64,000 bases of DNA, from positions 192,001-256,000 of the forward strand of contig CAVVMW010000004.1 of NCBI GenBank assembly GCA_963749495.1, written 5' to 3'. Below the pieces are notes generated by a model. The model was given only the letters and a program-made list of their open reading frames with translations. It was not told the origin of the DNA and did no database searches. Position 1 is the first letter of the stretch; every line of letters starts with the position of its first letter. Below, piece by piece: positions 53,004 to 63,998 of this stretch. A program made the position numbers and the translations under genes. Source of the stretch: an uncultured bacterium. Its GTDB lineage: Bacteria; Verrucomicrobiota; Verrucomicrobiia; Limisphaerales; UBA8199.

Positions 53004-53206
53004 AGGGCCGTTGACAAAGTTGTAGCGCAGGTTTCCAAACCTGCCGTATCGCCGATTTCCAATCGGCAGGGCGTCGGCATGTCGAGCGCCCCCGGTTTGC
53101 GGACGGCCTGCGGGTTTGGAAACCCGCGATACAGCAGGTTTGGAAACCTGCGCTACGCTGGCGCCCCTGGCGCACGGGCGCGCCGAGCGACTTTGTCAAG
53201 GGCCCT
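53004..53206. mobile_element. MITE enclosing a GTAG REP doublet; intact relative of the element interrupted at 60564-63707
   Basis: TIRs AGGGCCGTTGACAAAGT / ACTTTGTCAAGGGCCCT; REPs at 53022-53156. Confidence 0.85.
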
Positions 53207-53296
53207 GCCTGGGGTTTTTGGGTCCGCGAAAGGGACTTGCCACATTGGGATATATGGGGTATAAATCGGGTGTACCACTTGCTAGAGCTCCGTTTT

Positions 53297-58984: not shown

Positions 58985-60493
58985 TTGCGAAACGAGAACC
59001 CGATAGCTTCGCTGACCTCGGAGTCCGGCGCCTCGGCTCAGCCCGCCGCCGCCTCGCCGGCGGCCGGTGGCCAGGGCCAGGCCTATCGCGGCCCGTTCGC
59101 GATCATGACGAGCCTCTTCTTCATGTGGGGCGTCATGAATGTCTCGAACGACATCCTGATCCCCCGCTTCAAGGAGGCCTTCGCACTCAGTTACTTCCAG
59201 GCGATGCTGGTCCAGTTCGCCTTCTTCGGCGCCTATTCGATCGGCGGCCTGGCCTATTTTTTGATCTCGATGTACTCTGGCGACCCGATCAACCGCATCG
59301 GCTACAAGAAGGGCGTTATCATCGGCCTGCTCATCTGCGCCTCGGGCAGCGTCTTGTTCTATCCGGCGGCGATGGCGGTTTCGTATCCGTTTTTTCTGAC
59401 CGCGTTGTTCATCGCCGGGCTGGGCCTGGCGATGCTGCAGATAGCCGCCAACCCGTACGTGACCATCCTGGGCTCGGAACGGACGGCCTCGGCACGGCTC
59501 AACCTCTCCCAGGCCTTCAATTCGTTCGGCACGACCATCGGCCCCATCATCGGCGGCTGGCTCATCTTCACGGTGTTCAATCGCCCCGGGGCGCACGGGG
59601 CCGACTCGGTCAAGATCCCCTACCTGGGCTTCGCCGCAGCCTATCTTTTCCTGGCGTTCTTTTTCACCGTTGCCCATGTCCCCAATTTCACGAACAAAGA
59701 GCAGGCGGTGCGCGGCCTTGGCGCTCTCAAGCACCCCCACACGGTCCTGGGGATGATCGCCATCTTCATGTACGTCGGCGGGGAGATCTCCACCGGCAGC
59801 ATCATCGTCAATTTCCTGGGCACCGAGAAGCTGGGCCATGTCCCCAGGGAGATCGCCAGCGGCTACCTGGCCTTTTATTGGGGCGGGCTGATGATCGGGC
59901 GGTTCATGGGCGCGTTTGCCCTGAGCGATATGCGCAAGGCGCTCAAGCACACGCTGGTGGTGGCCGTGCCGGTGACGGCCTTTCTGATCATCCTGTTGTT
60001 GCCGGCCGCGGGCAAGGCCCTGCACCTGGGCTGGGACCGCGCGGCGCTGCTCTGCAGCCTCCCCAATGCCCTGCGCTACGGTGTCTTCCTGGCCGTCCTG
60101 CTCGCCGCCTTTTTCGCGGGCGAATCCAGCCCGCACCGGATGCTGGCGCTCTTCAGCGGCGTCATCCTTGGCCTGATGCTCACGGGCATTGTCAGCGCCG
60201 GCGAAACGGCCAAATGGGCCATCCTGTGCGTCGGGCTGTTCTGTTCGGTGATGTGGTCCAACATCTTCTCATTGGCCATCGAGGGGCTTGGCCCTCTCAA
60301 GAGCCAGGCCTCCTCGCTCCTGGTGGTGGCCATCCTGGGCGGCGCCGTGCTGCCGCCCACGCAGGGCCGGATCGCCGACCTCTACGGCGTTCAGGTCTCC
60401 TTTGTGGTTCCGATGGCGGCCTTTGCTTACATCGCCTTTTACGGGCTCTACGGCTATCGGGCGGGGCGAAACCCGGTCGTGAGCATAGAATAG
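58985..60493 (+). CDS. MFS sugar permease (FucP/GluP family)
   Basis: SLFFMWG, NDILIP, QFAFF, LQIAANPYV, RLNLSQAFNS, YVGGE; multiple TMs. Confidence 0.93.
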   Translation: MRNENPIASLTSESGASAQPAAASPAAGGQGQAYRGPFAIMTSLFFMWGVMNVSNDILIPRFKEAFALSYFQAMLVQFAFFGAYSIGGLAYFLISMYSGDPINRIGYKKGVIIGLLICASGSVLFYPAAMAVSYPFFLTALFIAGLGLAMLQIAANPYVTILGSERTASARLNLSQAFNSFGTTIGPIIGGWLIFTVFNRPGAHGADSVKIPYLGFAAAYLFLAFFFTVAHVPNFTNKEQAVRGLGALKHPHTVLGMIAIFMYVGGEISTGSIIVNFLGTEKLGHVPREIASGYLAFYWGGLMIGRFMGAFALSDMRKALKHTLVVAVPVTAFLIILLLPAAGKALHLGWDRAALLCSLPNALRYGVFLAVLLAAFFAGESSPHRMLALFSGVILGLMLTGIVSAGETAKWAILCVGLFCSVMWSNIFSLAIEGLGPLKSQASSLLVVAILGGAVLPPTQGRIADLYGVQVSFVVPMAAFAYIAFYGLYGYRAGRNPVVSIE

Positions 60494-60638
60494 AGCCTGT
60501 ACCAACAGCCCCGCGCGTGGGGGACCTTTGTCGCGGCCTTTGTCGCAGCCTTTGTCGAACCGCGGGGCCATTGACAAAGTCGCTCGGCGCGCCGGTGCGC
60601 CAGGGGCGCCAGCGTAGCGCAGGTTTCCGACGGTGGTT

Positions 60639-62735
60639 TCATACTACACCTGGTGCAATTTCGTTTAGGGCTTGCCGGCTTTTTGATTTGGCGATCCGCT
60701 TGGAGTTGGCCACCCAAGCCCGCAACGCCTGCTCTTGTTGGGCCGTCAACGCGATCCACATCCGGCCGTCGGGTTGCGCTTTTCGAGCTGTCACCAGTCC
60801 GTTCTTGAGCCAATAGTGAACCACGTATTGGCTAACGGCAAACTTTTGGCTCAGTTGCTGCACCGTCAACTCGCCGGGTTGTTGCAGCACTGGGGCCGGA
60901 ATGTGGTGCTTGCACCGAATCCAGGCGACCATACTGACGGTAAAAGCTCGGCCTTTGGCGCTTCGGAGGCCTTCCTGGTTCAGGGTGAGGGCAATCTGGC
61001 GGTCGGTCTGTTGCTGGGCGAGTTGCCGCACTTTGCTCACGAGGGCCTCCGTGTAGCGCCAGCGGTCGGCAGCGTTAAGCGGCAGCTCGACCACGAGGTC
61101 CTCGGTGGCCTCTCCTTGCCAGCGCAAATGCAAGATCGCCTGGTGCGTTGCCGGCCGCTTTTCCAGTGTAATATCCTTGAGCAGCAGCCGCAAAATGCAC
61201 TTGCGCTGCTTGGCGGTCGTGGTGGCCGCTTGCCAGAGCCGCGGCAGGTCCTCGGCCAGCAATCGTACCTGGGCCTGTTGCTCCGCCGACAAGGGCGGGG
61301 TTTGCTTTTCCTGATATTGCCGGTATTGCTGGCGCAACCCTTCGAGTTGCTGCAAGGCGTGTTCCCAACGTTGTTCGAGCGTCGCTGCTACCAGACGGTT
61401 GGCCGGATCAACTTCCTCGAAGCGCCGTTGGGCCAACTGCCCTTCATACTCGGCTCGCTGGATTCTGAGCTGCCATTGATGCTCCAACGCCTGGTCGCGC
61501 TGTTCCACCTCCGCCACGGCAGCCAAGGCGATTTCCACCTGCGCCGGCACCAGCGCCGACAAGATCCGCCGGGCGACGGCTTCATCCAGCAGGTCGCCAC
61601 GAACCGACCAGCAGCCTTTGCCTGCCAGTTCTCGCCGCCGCCAGTTGCATTCATACCAAACCAGGCAACCGCCCTGTCCCACGTAACGCGGGGAGAGCCG
61701 GTGCCCGCACTGACCACAGACCAGCAGACCTTGCAGCAGCGCCGGCCCTTCGCGCGCCGCCGAACCGGCGGCGCCAGGGCAAGCGTTGGTTTGGTTCTGC
61801 GCCAGCCGCTGCTGGTTGGCCAGATATTCCTCCCAGGGGATGTAGCCCGGATGTTGGTTGGGCAGGTTCACTTGCCACTCGGCCAAAGGCATAGAGCGGA
61901 CGGTATTGTGCATCTGGCCAGTGGGCGAGAAGTTTTTGCAGGTTCGCCGCCGACCGAATACATAGGCCCCGGCGTAAGCCGGGTTGCGCAATAGACTCAG
62001 GACGCGGCCATGGTTCAAGCGGCCCCACCGCAACTGCCCGTTCCAGACTCCACCGTAGCTGCGCTTGGGGAAGAGCAACTGGTGCTTGGCAAAATGCTGC
62101 ACCACTCCGTAAGCGCTGGCGGTTTGCCCAAAGCTGCTGAAGACCAGGCGCACGGCGCCCTGCACCTCCTGGTCCGGGTCTAAAACGATGCCCTCGGCCT
62201 CGGCATAAACAAAGCCCACCGGCAGGGGAAAACGCAGTTGGCCTTTGCGCGCTTTGTTGAGCTTGCCGCCCTGGAGGCGGACGCGCAAGAAGTGCAGTTC
62301 GGCCTGGGACATCGTACCCTTGAGTCCCAAGAGCAAGCGGTCGTTGAAATCCCCGGGGTTGTAAGCGCCGTCTTCGTCGATGAGCAACGTGCCCGTCCAC
62401 CCACACAAGTCCACTAGCCGATGCCAGTCCAGATCCGAGCGCGACAGGCGGGAGGCCTCCAGGGCGAGAACCGCGCCCACCTTCTGTAAGGAGACCAGCG
62501 ACACCACTCGTTGGAAATCCGGTCGGTTGGCCATCTGGCTGCCCGAGATCCCCAGGTCGCCGTCCAGAGTGAGTATCCGCTCCGGCGGCCAGCCCAGTTG
62601 AAGGGCCTTGTCCCGGAGCGCGTATTGGCGCTCGGTGCTCTCCCGGTGCTGGCGCACTTGGTTGAGGGTCGACTGGCGCAGGTAAATGCAGGCCAGTTTT
62701 TGGCGATGAGTTTCCTGGACCAACTCGGTGTTCAT
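60639..62735 (-). CDS. Large serine recombinase
   Basis: IYLRQST catalytic Ser, DLGISG, SRLSR, NPAYAG recombinase domain, CGQCG..C zinc ribbon, coiled coil, C-terminal HTH-like extension. Confidence 0.95.
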   Translation of the reverse strand: MNTELVQETHRQKLACIYLRQSTLNQVRQHRESTERQYALRDKALQLGWPPERILTLDGDLGISGSQMANRPDFQRVVSLVSLQKVGAVLALEASRLSRSDLDWHRLVDLCGWTGTLLIDEDGAYNPGDFNDRLLLGLKGTMSQAELHFLRVRLQGGKLNKARKGQLRFPLPVGFVYAEAEGIVLDPDQEVQGAVRLVFSSFGQTASAYGVVQHFAKHQLLFPKRSYGGVWNGQLRWGRLNHGRVLSLLRNPAYAGAYVFGRRRTCKNFSPTGQMHNTVRSMPLAEWQVNLPNQHPGYIPWEEYLANQQRLAQNQTNACPGAAGSAAREGPALLQGLLVCGQCGHRLSPRYVGQGGCLVWYECNWRRRELAGKGCWSVRGDLLDEAVARRILSALVPAQVEIALAAVAEVEQRDQALEHQWQLRIQRAEYEGQLAQRRFEEVDPANRLVAATLEQRWEHALQQLEGLRQQYRQYQEKQTPPLSAEQQAQVRLLAEDLPRLWQAATTTAKQRKCILRLLLKDITLEKRPATHQAILHLRWQGEATEDLVVELPLNAADRWRYTEALVSKVRQLAQQQTDRQIALTLNQEGLRSAKGRAFTVSMVAWIRCKHHIPAPVLQQPGELTVQQLSQKFAVSQYVVHYWLKNGLVTARKAQPDGRMWIALTAQQEQALRAWVANSKRIAKSKSRQALNEIAPGVV

Positions 62736-62862
62736 AAGCAGCGTTGGCCGCCCAAGGCGGCGGAGGCAAGGGTGCGCCAGCCCGACGGAACGCCTGGAGC
62801 ATGGTGGCGACCACCTGCGCCACCGGCCGGGGATCGATCCGCAAGGCCGCCGGCTGCATCGC

Positions 62863-63195
62863 TCAGACCTTCTCCTGGCGGCGTAAGAGTTGGCGGTTGA
62901 TGTCGCATATCTGTTCCAACAGATGGCGCACGTGCTGAAAGTTTTTTATCAGGGCTTGGACCTGGGCGTGCTGCTGCTGAGAGAGGTATTGGAGTTGGGG
63001 ACGGCCGTGGGGATAGCTGACCGACAAATAGTATTTGGGACCGTGACCGCGGCCGGAGGCGCAGTGGCAACCGGGCTTGCCGCAGGGCAGGTATCGCTCG
63101 ATGAGCGAGCCGCGAACCACGCGCCGGGCCAAAGGAGGCAGGCGTTGGATCAAGGCCTGGCGTTTGCGGCGCAGGCTGGCGATGGAAGCGGGCAT
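62863..63195 (-). CDS. DUF6788-like small protein
   Basis: RGSL.ERY..CGKPGCHC..G.GHGP.YYLS motif. Confidence 0.8.
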   Translation of the reverse strand: MPASIASLRRKRQALIQRLPPLARRVVRGSLIERYLPCGKPGCHCASGRGHGPKYYLSVSYPHGRPQLQYLSQQQHAQVQALIKNFQHVRHLLEQICDINRQLLRRQEKV

Positions 63196-63196
63196 G

Positions 63197-63254
63197 ATTA
63201 TCAGAACAGTTAAATAACTGTTCTGATAATGGATCGGTCAAGGGCATCTGTCAA
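63197..63254 (-). promoter_or_regulatory. Element promoter with overlapping perfect 16-bp inverted repeat
   Basis: TTGACA (63254-49)-17 nt-CATTAT (63231-26); IR ATTATCAGAACAGTTA-AA-TAACTGTTCTGATAAT at 63197-63230. Confidence 0.75.
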
Positions 63255-63567
63255 CTCCTTTCTGGTTCGAAGAGGCCGGCGGGCCGGACGCCTTCAACTG
63301 CCGCAGCAGTTGCACCAACTCCAGCAGTGCGGGCGCCGACAGCCGGCGCGCGGTCCCCGCGCTCGTCGGCACCGCCTTGTCGGTCCAGTCCTCCAAAATG
63401 GAAAAGGTGCCACCTTCTCCCCCCTCCAGAATCAGCGTGGCCTGACCGCGGTAGCGCCGGGCTTCGACCACCCGGAACCGCTCTCCGCGCCGGGGATGGA
63501 AGGGGTGGGTGATTACCGCCCATCCCAAAAGTTCACCTGCACCATGTGCAGTTCGCACTAACTGTCC
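63238..63567 (-). CDS. DUF5372 (Y4bD/Y4pK-like) protein with no ATG inside the integrated element
   Basis: ITHPFHP..G.RF...WTD motif; the frame runs open through the element end. Confidence 0.75.
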   Translation of the reverse strand, partial: GQLVRTAHGAGELLGWAVITHPFHPRRGERFRVVEARRYRGQATLILEGGEGGTFSILEDWTDKAVPTSAGTARRLSAPALLELVQLLRQLKASGPPASSNQKGVDRCP

Positions 63568-63749
63568 CAAACCTGCTGTATCGCGGGTTTCCAAACCCGC
63601 AGGCCATCCGCAAACCGGGGGCGCTCGACATGCCGACGCCCTGCCGATTTGGAAATCGGCGATACGGCAGGTTTGGAAACCTGCGCTACAACTTTGTCAA
63701 CGGCCCTCTGTCGAACCGGCCAAGTCTCGACAAAGGCGGAAACGAGTGC

Positions 63750-63998
63750 TCAGCGCCGCGGGCTTTGGGCCGGCAGCGGGAGGGTCTCGCCGGTGGCGTT
63801 GGAGGTCGAGTGATAGGTGCCCGGCTGGAGACCGCTGAGGGGATCGGTGGTCTGATAATGGCGCCAGGCGAAGAAGCCTGCCAGCAGCGCCCCCGCCAGG
63901 ATCAAGACTCCCAAGGCCAGCAGGCCGCGGCGCCAATCCACTTTCGAGAGTTGGAGCATGAAGGAGTCCAGCATCCCGCGCGGCTCGTTCGAGAGTGC
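63750..63998 (-). CDS. 3' end of a membrane protein entering from the window edge
   Basis: Open to the window end; one TM segment LLALGVLILAGALLAGFFAW. Confidence 0.55.
   Translation of the reverse strand, partial: ALSNEPRGMLDSFMLQLSKVDWRRGLLALGVLILAGALLAGFFAWRHYQTTDPLSGLQPGTYHSTSNATGETLPLPAQSPRR

Follow-up and report, generated by a model that had tools for sequence, protein, structure and literature searches.

The locus described here belongs to a 64,000-nucleotide stretch of DNA, referred to below as the window, which corresponds to positions 192,001-256,000 of contig CAVVMW010000004.1 in assembly GCA_963749495.1, from an uncultured member of the Verrucomicrobiota (Limisphaerales; UBA8199). 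Window positions 60627-63568 hold a 2,940-bp element of the large-serine-recombinase type, with three genes on the minus strand. Read along that strand, a DUF5372 gene is followed by an internal promoter and a putative operator, a DUF6788 gene and the recombinase gene. The main subject of this analysis is the DUF5372 gene, whose translation start appears to lie at the opposite end of the element from its body, an arrangement first put forward in an earlier note on this DNA. The features are listed below from the lowest to the highest coordinate.

60566-60626, minus strand: right half of a palindromic repeat of ~160 bp resembling a miniature inverted-repeat transposable element (MITE), which forms the right arm of the attachment (att) site attB (AAACCTGCGCTAC...); a direct match of the flank to empty repeats
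60627-60628, minus strand: crossover core of attR, GG on the minus and CC on the plus strand; the 2-bp overlap of the flank matches in empty sites
60629-60642, minus strand: P-arm spacer of 14 nt, with ATG 60642-60640, encoding M-K-P-P and contributing the initial two bases of codon 5
60639-62735, minus strand: large serine recombinase, 698 amino acids (aa), with the Pfam domains Resolvase, Recombinase and Zn_ribbon_recom
60643-60651, minus strand: motif of the P arm, GTGTAGT here and GTGCAGT in the family consensus, with a mirror copy in the left arm; positions -7 to -1 are kept in both arms
62863-63195, minus strand: DUF6788 protein, 110 aa, with a CGKPGCHC motif (Pfam PF20586, E 3.6e-26)
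63197-63230, no strand: perfect inverted repeat with 16-nt arms and a 2-nt gap, a putative operator spanning the -10 hexamer and the DUF6788 leader
63226-63254, minus strand: promoter-like site TTGACA-17-CATTAT, with its -35 hexamer within the last codons of DUF5372
63238-63567, minus strand: body of the DUF5372 gene, 109 codons and a stop, beginning at the second core base; defined by the open reading frame (ORF), the Pfam match and the frame
63526-63558, minus strand: alternative starts inside the element, GTG 63558-63556 and TTG 63528-63526, present in this copy and not kept by the family
63546-63566, minus strand: P' arm, a 14-nt spacer GACAGTTAGTGCGA and the motif ACTGCAC (mirror of the P-arm motif), which also encodes leader residues of DUF5372
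63567-63568, minus strand: crossover core of attL, GG on the minus strand; the flank overlap in empty sites
63569-63705, minus strand: left part of the MITE-like repeat, forming the left arm of attB (...CAGCAGGTTT), with in-frame TTG codons at 63594 and 63570

The recombinase has the domain order of a large serine recombinase, an N-terminal resolvase domain (PF00239, E 3.3e-18, residues 16-166) followed by the Recombinase domain (PF07508, E 6.6e-15) and a zinc beta-ribbon (PF13408, E 2.6e-9). Residues Tyr18, Arg20, Gln21 and Ser22, which make up the Y-x-R-x-S context with the nucleophilic serine, are invariant in 26 relatives. The DUF6788 protein matches its profile with 91.8 bits against a cut-off of 27.2. 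The ORF at 63238-63594 carries DUF5372 (PF17342, E 1e-12) from residue 28, where the sequence ITHPFHP begins, and the match of 48.3 bits against a cut-off of 25 covers positions 1-76 of the 78 in the profile.

The ends of the element were fixed independently of the earlier note, from six copies and from uninterrupted repeats. The genome (11.4 Mb) contains six copies with 99-100% identity, all inserted in one palindromic repeat with identical flanking sequences; five measure 2,940 bp and the sixth (L006) 2,941 bp. The flanks are the two halves of the ~160-bp repeat, which has terminal inverted repeats of its own, and the left flank matches at least 34 further places in the genome at 95-98% identity. 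The target site was found uninterrupted in 22 of the 24 repeat loci retrieved. The left and right flank matches overlap there by two bases, GG on the element strand, and the empty site is a perfect palindrome around this GG, which puts the crossover cores at 63568-63567 and 60628-60627. Such a 2-bp overlap in a palindromic empty site is the signature of crossover by a large serine recombinase, and the core is surrounded by imperfect inverted half-sites, with the motif 14 nt away on each arm. The uninterrupted repeats thus bear out the element ends and the 2-bp core (CC on the plus strand) that the earlier note had read. The multiple identical copies and the empty sites bear indirectly on the predicted excision and re-integration.

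Further copies of the repeat are found at window positions 53051-53208 and at L016:1455-1655, with terminal inverted repeats GGCC.TTGACAAAGT and a long internal palindrome. The left arm of the repeat holds the reverse complement of the target palindrome (core CC), and all six insertions are in the right arm.

At the right end, the recombinase gene terminates with GGT GTA GTA TGA, and its stop codon (60641-60639) is overlapped by an ATG (60642-60640) in the arrangement ATGA, just as the earlier note had it. The P-arm motif with its preceding bases reads AGGTG and constitutes a Shine-Dalgarno-like sequence 4 nt ahead of this ATG. Once the two ends are joined at the core, the distance from the ATG to the isoleucine codon of ITHPFHP is 14 nt plus the 2-nt core plus 53 nt, that is 69 nt or 23 codons, and the ATG is in frame with DUF5372. 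The resulting ORF has 5 + 109 = 114 codons, the length of the protein that the note had proposed across one shared core. The note had also described the DUF5372 ORF as lacking a start. This holds for ATG, no in-frame example of which precedes ITHPFHP in the ORF at 63238-63594, and not for the alternative codons GTG 63558 and TTG 63528. On its own, the window copy cannot decide where DUF5372 starts.

A scan for sigma-70-like sites over positions 60400-63800 returned one site against 0.6 expected. This site (TTGACA-17-CATTAT, 63254-63226) lies at the 3' end of the DUF5372 ORF, and no promoter-like site was found upstream of DUF5372 in the scanned region, either inside the element or in the flank, which agrees with the note's statement that the only evident promoter is downstream of this ORF. 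A -35-like hexamer is present near the DUF5372 stop codon in 55 of 92 distinct relatives. Operator-like palindromes with altered arms occur in other subfamilies (CAGAACAGTTA... versus CAGACCAGTTA...), and a palindrome that changes its arms while covering the DUF6788 leader is the pattern expected of an operator, a putative assignment.

We further compared the element with its relatives. A DNA search in 60 relatives revealed only three weakly similar elements (65-72% identity) and, consequently, loci anchored on the protein were used. Metagenomes gave 344 pattern matches and 267 relatives, the best 80 of which were kept; named genomes gave 67 matches and 41 relatives, from which 39 loci with 25-50% identity were taken, including Burkholderia, Paraburkholderia, Cupriavidus, Ralstonia, Bradyrhizobium, Acidobacteriota and Pirellulales. 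Together with the window, these 119 loci make up 120 sources, each oriented on DUF5372. They display a common layout: GTGCA(G/A)T, a start codon that opens a 14-nt spacer, a 2-nt core, a second 14-nt spacer, the motif in mirror form, A(C/A)TGCA, and then 36, 39 or 42 nt up to ITHPFHP. Because it recurs in divergent relatives, the arrangement is not a matter of chance.

The reading frame set by the predicted core matches that of ITHPFHP at 106 of the 107 left ends. The distance from the motif to ITHPFHP is 39 nt in 96 loci, 42 nt in 11, and 36 and 38 nt in one each; spacings of 36, 39 and 42 nt imply that insertions and deletions in this segment comprise whole codons. Among 77 distinct segments between the core and ITHPFHP, none contains a stop codon in the DUF5372 frame, as against 45 and 55 in the other two frames. 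In 22 of 106 loci, the stretch between the core and ITHPFHP contains neither ATG nor GTG nor TTG, and 14 of these 22 also lack a start codon in the flank up to the first upstream stop. Close relatives without internal starts include L063, L066, L069, L078, L093, L094 and L105. The cores predicted from symmetry agree at both ends in 35 of 40 loci (GG in 27, TT in 8, AA in 2, AG in 1, and others).

The recombinase is truncated or frameshifted in L073/L074, L096/L097, L078, L142, L147/L168, L167 and L171, with the DUF5372 frame open; these look like decaying or non-autonomous copies. The left and right core dinucleotides are unlike in L115, L116, L123, L136 and L141, for example GG versus GT or GC. 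Copies with mismatched cores may fail to excise cleanly, or may hold sequencing errors.

The right ends were collected with a profile built from 44 right ends in which the three columns of the start codon were masked; a loose search pattern had given spurious sites. The masked profile recovered 54 right ends, amounting to 42 distinct 40-mers; for 50 of the 54, the left end of the locus had also been mapped. All 42 carry ATG or GTG 14 nt ahead of the core, with A in 39 and G in 3 at the first position, and T and G in all 42 at the second and third. Most profile matches are also seeds, and the seeds were chosen with a start codon. Owing to this overlap, a separate mirror test was run with the codon left free, in which the left-arm 7-mer of each locus was reverse-complemented (at most one mismatch) and followed by 14 free bases and the core of the same locus. 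Of the 67 loci, 38 gave one candidate, three gave several and 26 gave none. ATG or GTG was found in 36 of the candidates and was missing from eight, six of which are inside the recombinase gene or past an otherwise identified end. Background sites inside elements carried ATG or GTG in 2 of 14 cases. The left-arm positions that mirror the start codon are variable (0.7-0.8 bit, versus 1.6-2.0 bits at the right end); symmetric binding by the recombinase, therefore, does not explain the start codon.

The relation of this codon to the recombinase gene varies. The earlier note had left two features to be compared among homologues; the frame across the junction is retained throughout, apart from a single left end, whereas the ATGA overlap is not. 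In a second subfamily, the start follows the recombinase stop at a distance of 3-27 nt, behind a GGAGGTG or AAGGTG. In a third, ~290 nt separate the stop from the start, AAGGAG precedes the latter, and there is no internal start. Starts that overlap the recombinase stop often have a weak ribosome-binding site, which reads CATGTG in ~10 loci. Starts that stand apart from the recombinase gene with a ribosome-binding site of their own indicate a real translation start and not a by-product of the recombinase, and the overall pattern argues for a true start, either coupled or standing alone. The ~290-nt stretch of the third subfamily (L116, L119, L123, L129 and L141) has no obvious ORF between the recombinase stop and the ribosome-binding site and ATG at the right end, and may hold a regulatory element or an RNA.

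Based on these results, we consider it likely that the DUF5372 gene is split by attP and that its product is made mainly or only from the excised circle. The attachment site would lie within the 5' end of the gene, with the ribosome-binding site, the start and four codons placed at the right end, behind or overlapping the recombinase stop, and 109 codons running from the crossover base at the left end. In the integrated state, the DUF5372 body would have no promoter borne by the element and, in many relatives, no start codon either, and the internal promoter would drive DUF6788 and the recombinase. Joining of the ends by the recombinase would form attP and restore the 114-codon ORF directly downstream of the recombinase gene. 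The transcript from the single internal promoter would then run in the circle through DUF6788 and the recombinase and across attP into DUF5372, the synthesis of which would stop on re-integration. What the sequences show directly are the ends, the 2-bp core, the frame, and selection that preserves the start, the frame and a stop-free reading across the joint; circle formation and excision-dependent expression are what we infer from them.

A simpler possibility is that DUF5372 is an ordinary gene translated from an internal start while the element is integrated (GTG 63558 or TTG 63528), the right-end ATG and its frame being by-products of the recombinase C-terminus and the att site. In the window, the two codons share the DUF5372 frame, and AGGTGA precedes TTG 63528 by 4 nt; the product of this TTG would keep the fold, since the folded domain begins near residue 12-16 of 109. 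Gene callers use the equivalents of these starts, producing forms of 105-108 aa and 95-96 aa, and the GTGCAGT motif beside the right-end ATG is itself an att feature. The family fits this poorly. Translation from a GTG or TTG in the integrated state, which the earlier note had named as fatal to its proposal, could apply to the window copy and fails for the 22 loci that have no such internal codon, some close relatives among them; no promoter lies upstream of DUF5372 within the element, and the stretch from the core to ITHPFHP is open in every distinct sequence. The right-end start is kept even 3 to ~290 nt past the recombinase stop, and the left-arm positions that mirror it are not conserved. 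We regard an ordinary gene as improbable. Translation might instead start at the isoleucine codon of ITHPFHP itself (ATC, ATT or ATA), leaving the open frame upstream untranslated. The Prokaryotic Genome Annotation Pipeline (PGAP) begins DUF5372 at ATC on a Burkholderia savannae plasmid (L179, NZ_CP013419.1), and the Pfam model begins at that residue. This is highly improbable, given an upstream frame open in 77 of 77 distinct segments (32 and 22 of 77 in the other frames), insertions and deletions in whole codons, and four residues before THPFHP that form a strand in the AlphaFold model (pLDDT, the predicted local distance difference test score, of 88).

The two modes could also coexist, a short form arising by read-through while the element is integrated and the full form from the circle, in which case the split would modulate rather than switch. 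Internal starts are common in the subfamily of the window, and the window flank leaves the frame open for 44 codons with two TTG codons. The antisense insertion in the seven relatives checked removes the obvious source of read-through, and the window flank displays no promoter-like site; a dual mode is, in our judgement, unlikely. The short repeats, finally, might be internally deleted derivatives of the element, as MITEs are, with the true ends further out and no split gene. The repeat has terminal inverted repeats of its own and at least 34 copies, and yet its junction is a perfect palindrome around GG. This explanation, to which we give hardly any credence, was rejected because relatives with the same ends are found in unrelated targets (a group II intron reverse transcriptase, IS21, IS91 and IS3).

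Several observations weigh against production of DUF5372 from the excised circle. In the window copy, the integrated frame extends into the repeat through 44 open codons, with TTG 63594 and TTG 63570, and together with the in-frame starts inside the element this would allow a shorter protein to be made while the element is integrated, provided that transcription reaches the region. The comparison has its own constraints: the search patterns missed ITHPFHP in five and the left motif in six of the 120 sources, so that these 11 were dropped and 109 were left, 107 of them with a left end, and the loci are related by descent, so that the counts do not represent independent events. One left end (L171, with the 38-nt spacing) is out of frame, and in 5 of 40 loci the left and right cores are unlike. 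Eighteen loci long enough to contain a right end gave none with the profile; in four of them (L147, L153, L174 and L177) an ATG or GTG can be recognized by eye, and most of the others have broken or nested recombinase genes. As both arms carry GTGCAGT in mirrored form, recombinase binding must account for some of the conservation at the ends. In none of the retrieved loci does the right arm directly precede the left arm. Contigs of four sequencing runs over 60500-63700, out of 18 runs listed with no RNA run among them, are fragmentary and contain no circle joints, which is uninformative either way on circles and on expression, and a 26-nt stretch of the right arm had no matches in viral contigs, a search that did not include the joined junction sequence itself. 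The function we propose below for DUF5372 draws on one weak complex prediction and on the logic of the arrangement.

The predicted structure of DUF5372 (mean pLDDT 82) has a disordered N-terminus of ~15 residues, four strands and one helix. As the N-terminus is disordered, the part encoded by the att site would constitute a floppy leader before the fold. The barrel resembles SH3, KOW and Tudor folds over residues 12-64 (VIA-align, Z 5-6.2), which is a common arrangement, and no known recombination directionality factor was found among the fold matches. A Foldseek search of the PDB returned no match at E <= 0.001 for DUF5372 or DUF6788, and a structure search of the Atlas returned DUF5372 clusters only. 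The model of DUF6788 (pLDDT 74), which has 1,616 homologues, displays a three-stranded unit and a long C-terminal helix. A three-chain complex prediction with DUF5372 as the partner scored 0.56, against 0.00 for the best control, and replacing the recombinase while keeping DUF6788 brought the score down to 0.00; at least 65% of contacts are shared between runs, with a partner pLDDT of at least 63. Among 157 solved complexes, 116 pass the mark applied to these scores, as do 2 of 215 mismatches. With a score of 0.60 or less, only 18 of the 157 pass, along with both of the passing mismatches, and the prediction lends weak support to binding.

The annotation of DUF5372 in databases is inconsistent, which a split gene would explain. 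The homologues are called from downstream of ITHPFHP in 18 of 98 cases, and the truncated calls and the ATC start mentioned above would have the same origin. Matches to DUF5372 occur in 97 plasmid records, among them Sinorhizobium, Rhizobium and Burkholderia. On pRmeGR4b of S. meliloti GR4 (L178), DUF5372 is called as a truncated protein of 69 aa, and two partial copies, apparently inverted to each other, lie beside IS66 genes. The proteobacterial subfamily represented by L178 and L179 has four genes, encoding DUF5372, a helix-turn-helix protein, a small hypothetical protein and the recombinase.

Outside this genome, the relatives are inserted in conserved coding motifs of other mobile elements (flanks of L059-L138 and L139-L177). 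One target is the P-T-V-(K/R)-D-R motif of group II intron reverse transcriptases, with RVT_1 and GIIM domains in the flanks of L082 (L082:3033-4001) and L129, and RVT_1 alone in that of L109. L156 is inserted in the zinc domain of an IS91-type Y2 transposase (L156:2-1288), and L154 (L154:3174-3944) and the B. savannae plasmid element, the latter with istB adjacent, interrupt IS21 istA between P-R-D-K and A-K-V-E. By eye, L174 targets an IS3-type transposase. In the seven loci that were checked, the element always runs antisense to the gene it interrupts. The core dinucleotide is particular to each lineage, and the lineage of the window targets a chromosomal palindromic repeat instead.

As a tentative model, DUF5372, with its SH3/KOW-like barrel, helix and disordered leader encoded by the att site, might bind the recombinase and favour re-integration, the topology of the element setting the direction of the reaction. 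It is conceivable, though somewhat doubtful, that DUF5372 is a directionality partner restricted to the circle, promoting integration when the element is excised and silent when it is integrated, in a family parasitic on other mobile elements into which it inserts antisense. Control of this kind would be undescribed among serine recombinases. If the split gene operates as proposed, it would represent a compact natural state sensor, in which one recombination event moves the DNA and switches a gene by joining or parting its start and body. The split-start design would be directly reusable in synthetic circuits built on serine integrases. DUF5372, and perhaps DUF6788, are candidate accessory factors of a large and widespread recombinase family, and directionality factors are the limiting part of integrase toolkits. 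The rule of motif, 14 nt, core, 14 nt and motif gives the element ends and attP from the sequence alone, and the choice of conserved motifs of other mobile elements as targets is an unusual ecological niche for a transposon.

A literature search found no paper naming DUF5372 or DUF6788. Among the papers listed, and at the level of titles and the beginnings of abstracts, it found no bacterial element in which attP separates an accessory gene of that element from its start, and, for serine recombinases together with group II intron reverse transcriptases and insertion sequences, no paper on the present family. The related systems differ in what is cut and in what the joint supplies. In the transposons Tn4451 and Tn4453, also mobilized by a large serine recombinase and with an expression signal across the joint, Lyras and Rood reportedly described in 2000 that the circle joint forms a promoter for the TnpX recombinase gene; here, the joint completes an accessory ORF and the promoter is internal. 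Expression also depends on circle formation in the case of the junction promoters of IS911, IS2, IS30 and IS110 and the read-through of the Tn916 joint. These act on transcription, with coding sequences intact in both states, whereas in the present element the ORF itself is split.

Interrupted frames restored through excision by a large serine recombinase are described, in the portions consulted, for the skin/sigK and gin/gerE elements (PMC5595907, PMC5025042). The restored gene there belongs to the host and is located at attB; in our case it is the element's own, at attP. Mycobacteriophage BPs carries attP in the 3' end of its repressor gene, and what the abstract-level account describes is an integration-dependent immunity (PMC4557955). 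As here, attP is in a gene of the element, and the integrated and free forms encode different products. In BPs, by the same account (PMC4557955), a tyrosine integrase changes the 3' end, a degradation tag is lost and the integrated form is active, whereas in DUF5372 the 5' end and the start would be removed and the free form would be complete. The closest parallel is found in the archaeal 'suicidal' integrases of the SSV1, pTN3 and pT26-2 type, which have the att site in the integrase gene and are whole only when circular; the excerpted parts of a review treat this gene split as a built-in control of directionality and confine it to archaea (PMC8371274). Both arrangements place the att site in a gene of the element that integration splits and the circle restores, the latter being, in our element, predicted from the joined ends. 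To judge from those excerpts, the archaeal systems rely on a tyrosine recombinase and cut the integrase gene itself mid-gene. The present bacterial element does not carry an SSV-type module: its serine recombinase gene is intact when integrated and DUF5372 is split instead, an accessory gene cut after codon 5, so that its translation start and its body come apart. Genes that contain an att site are already known, and what appears to be new is the separation of the accessory gene of a bacterial serine-recombinase element from its own start.

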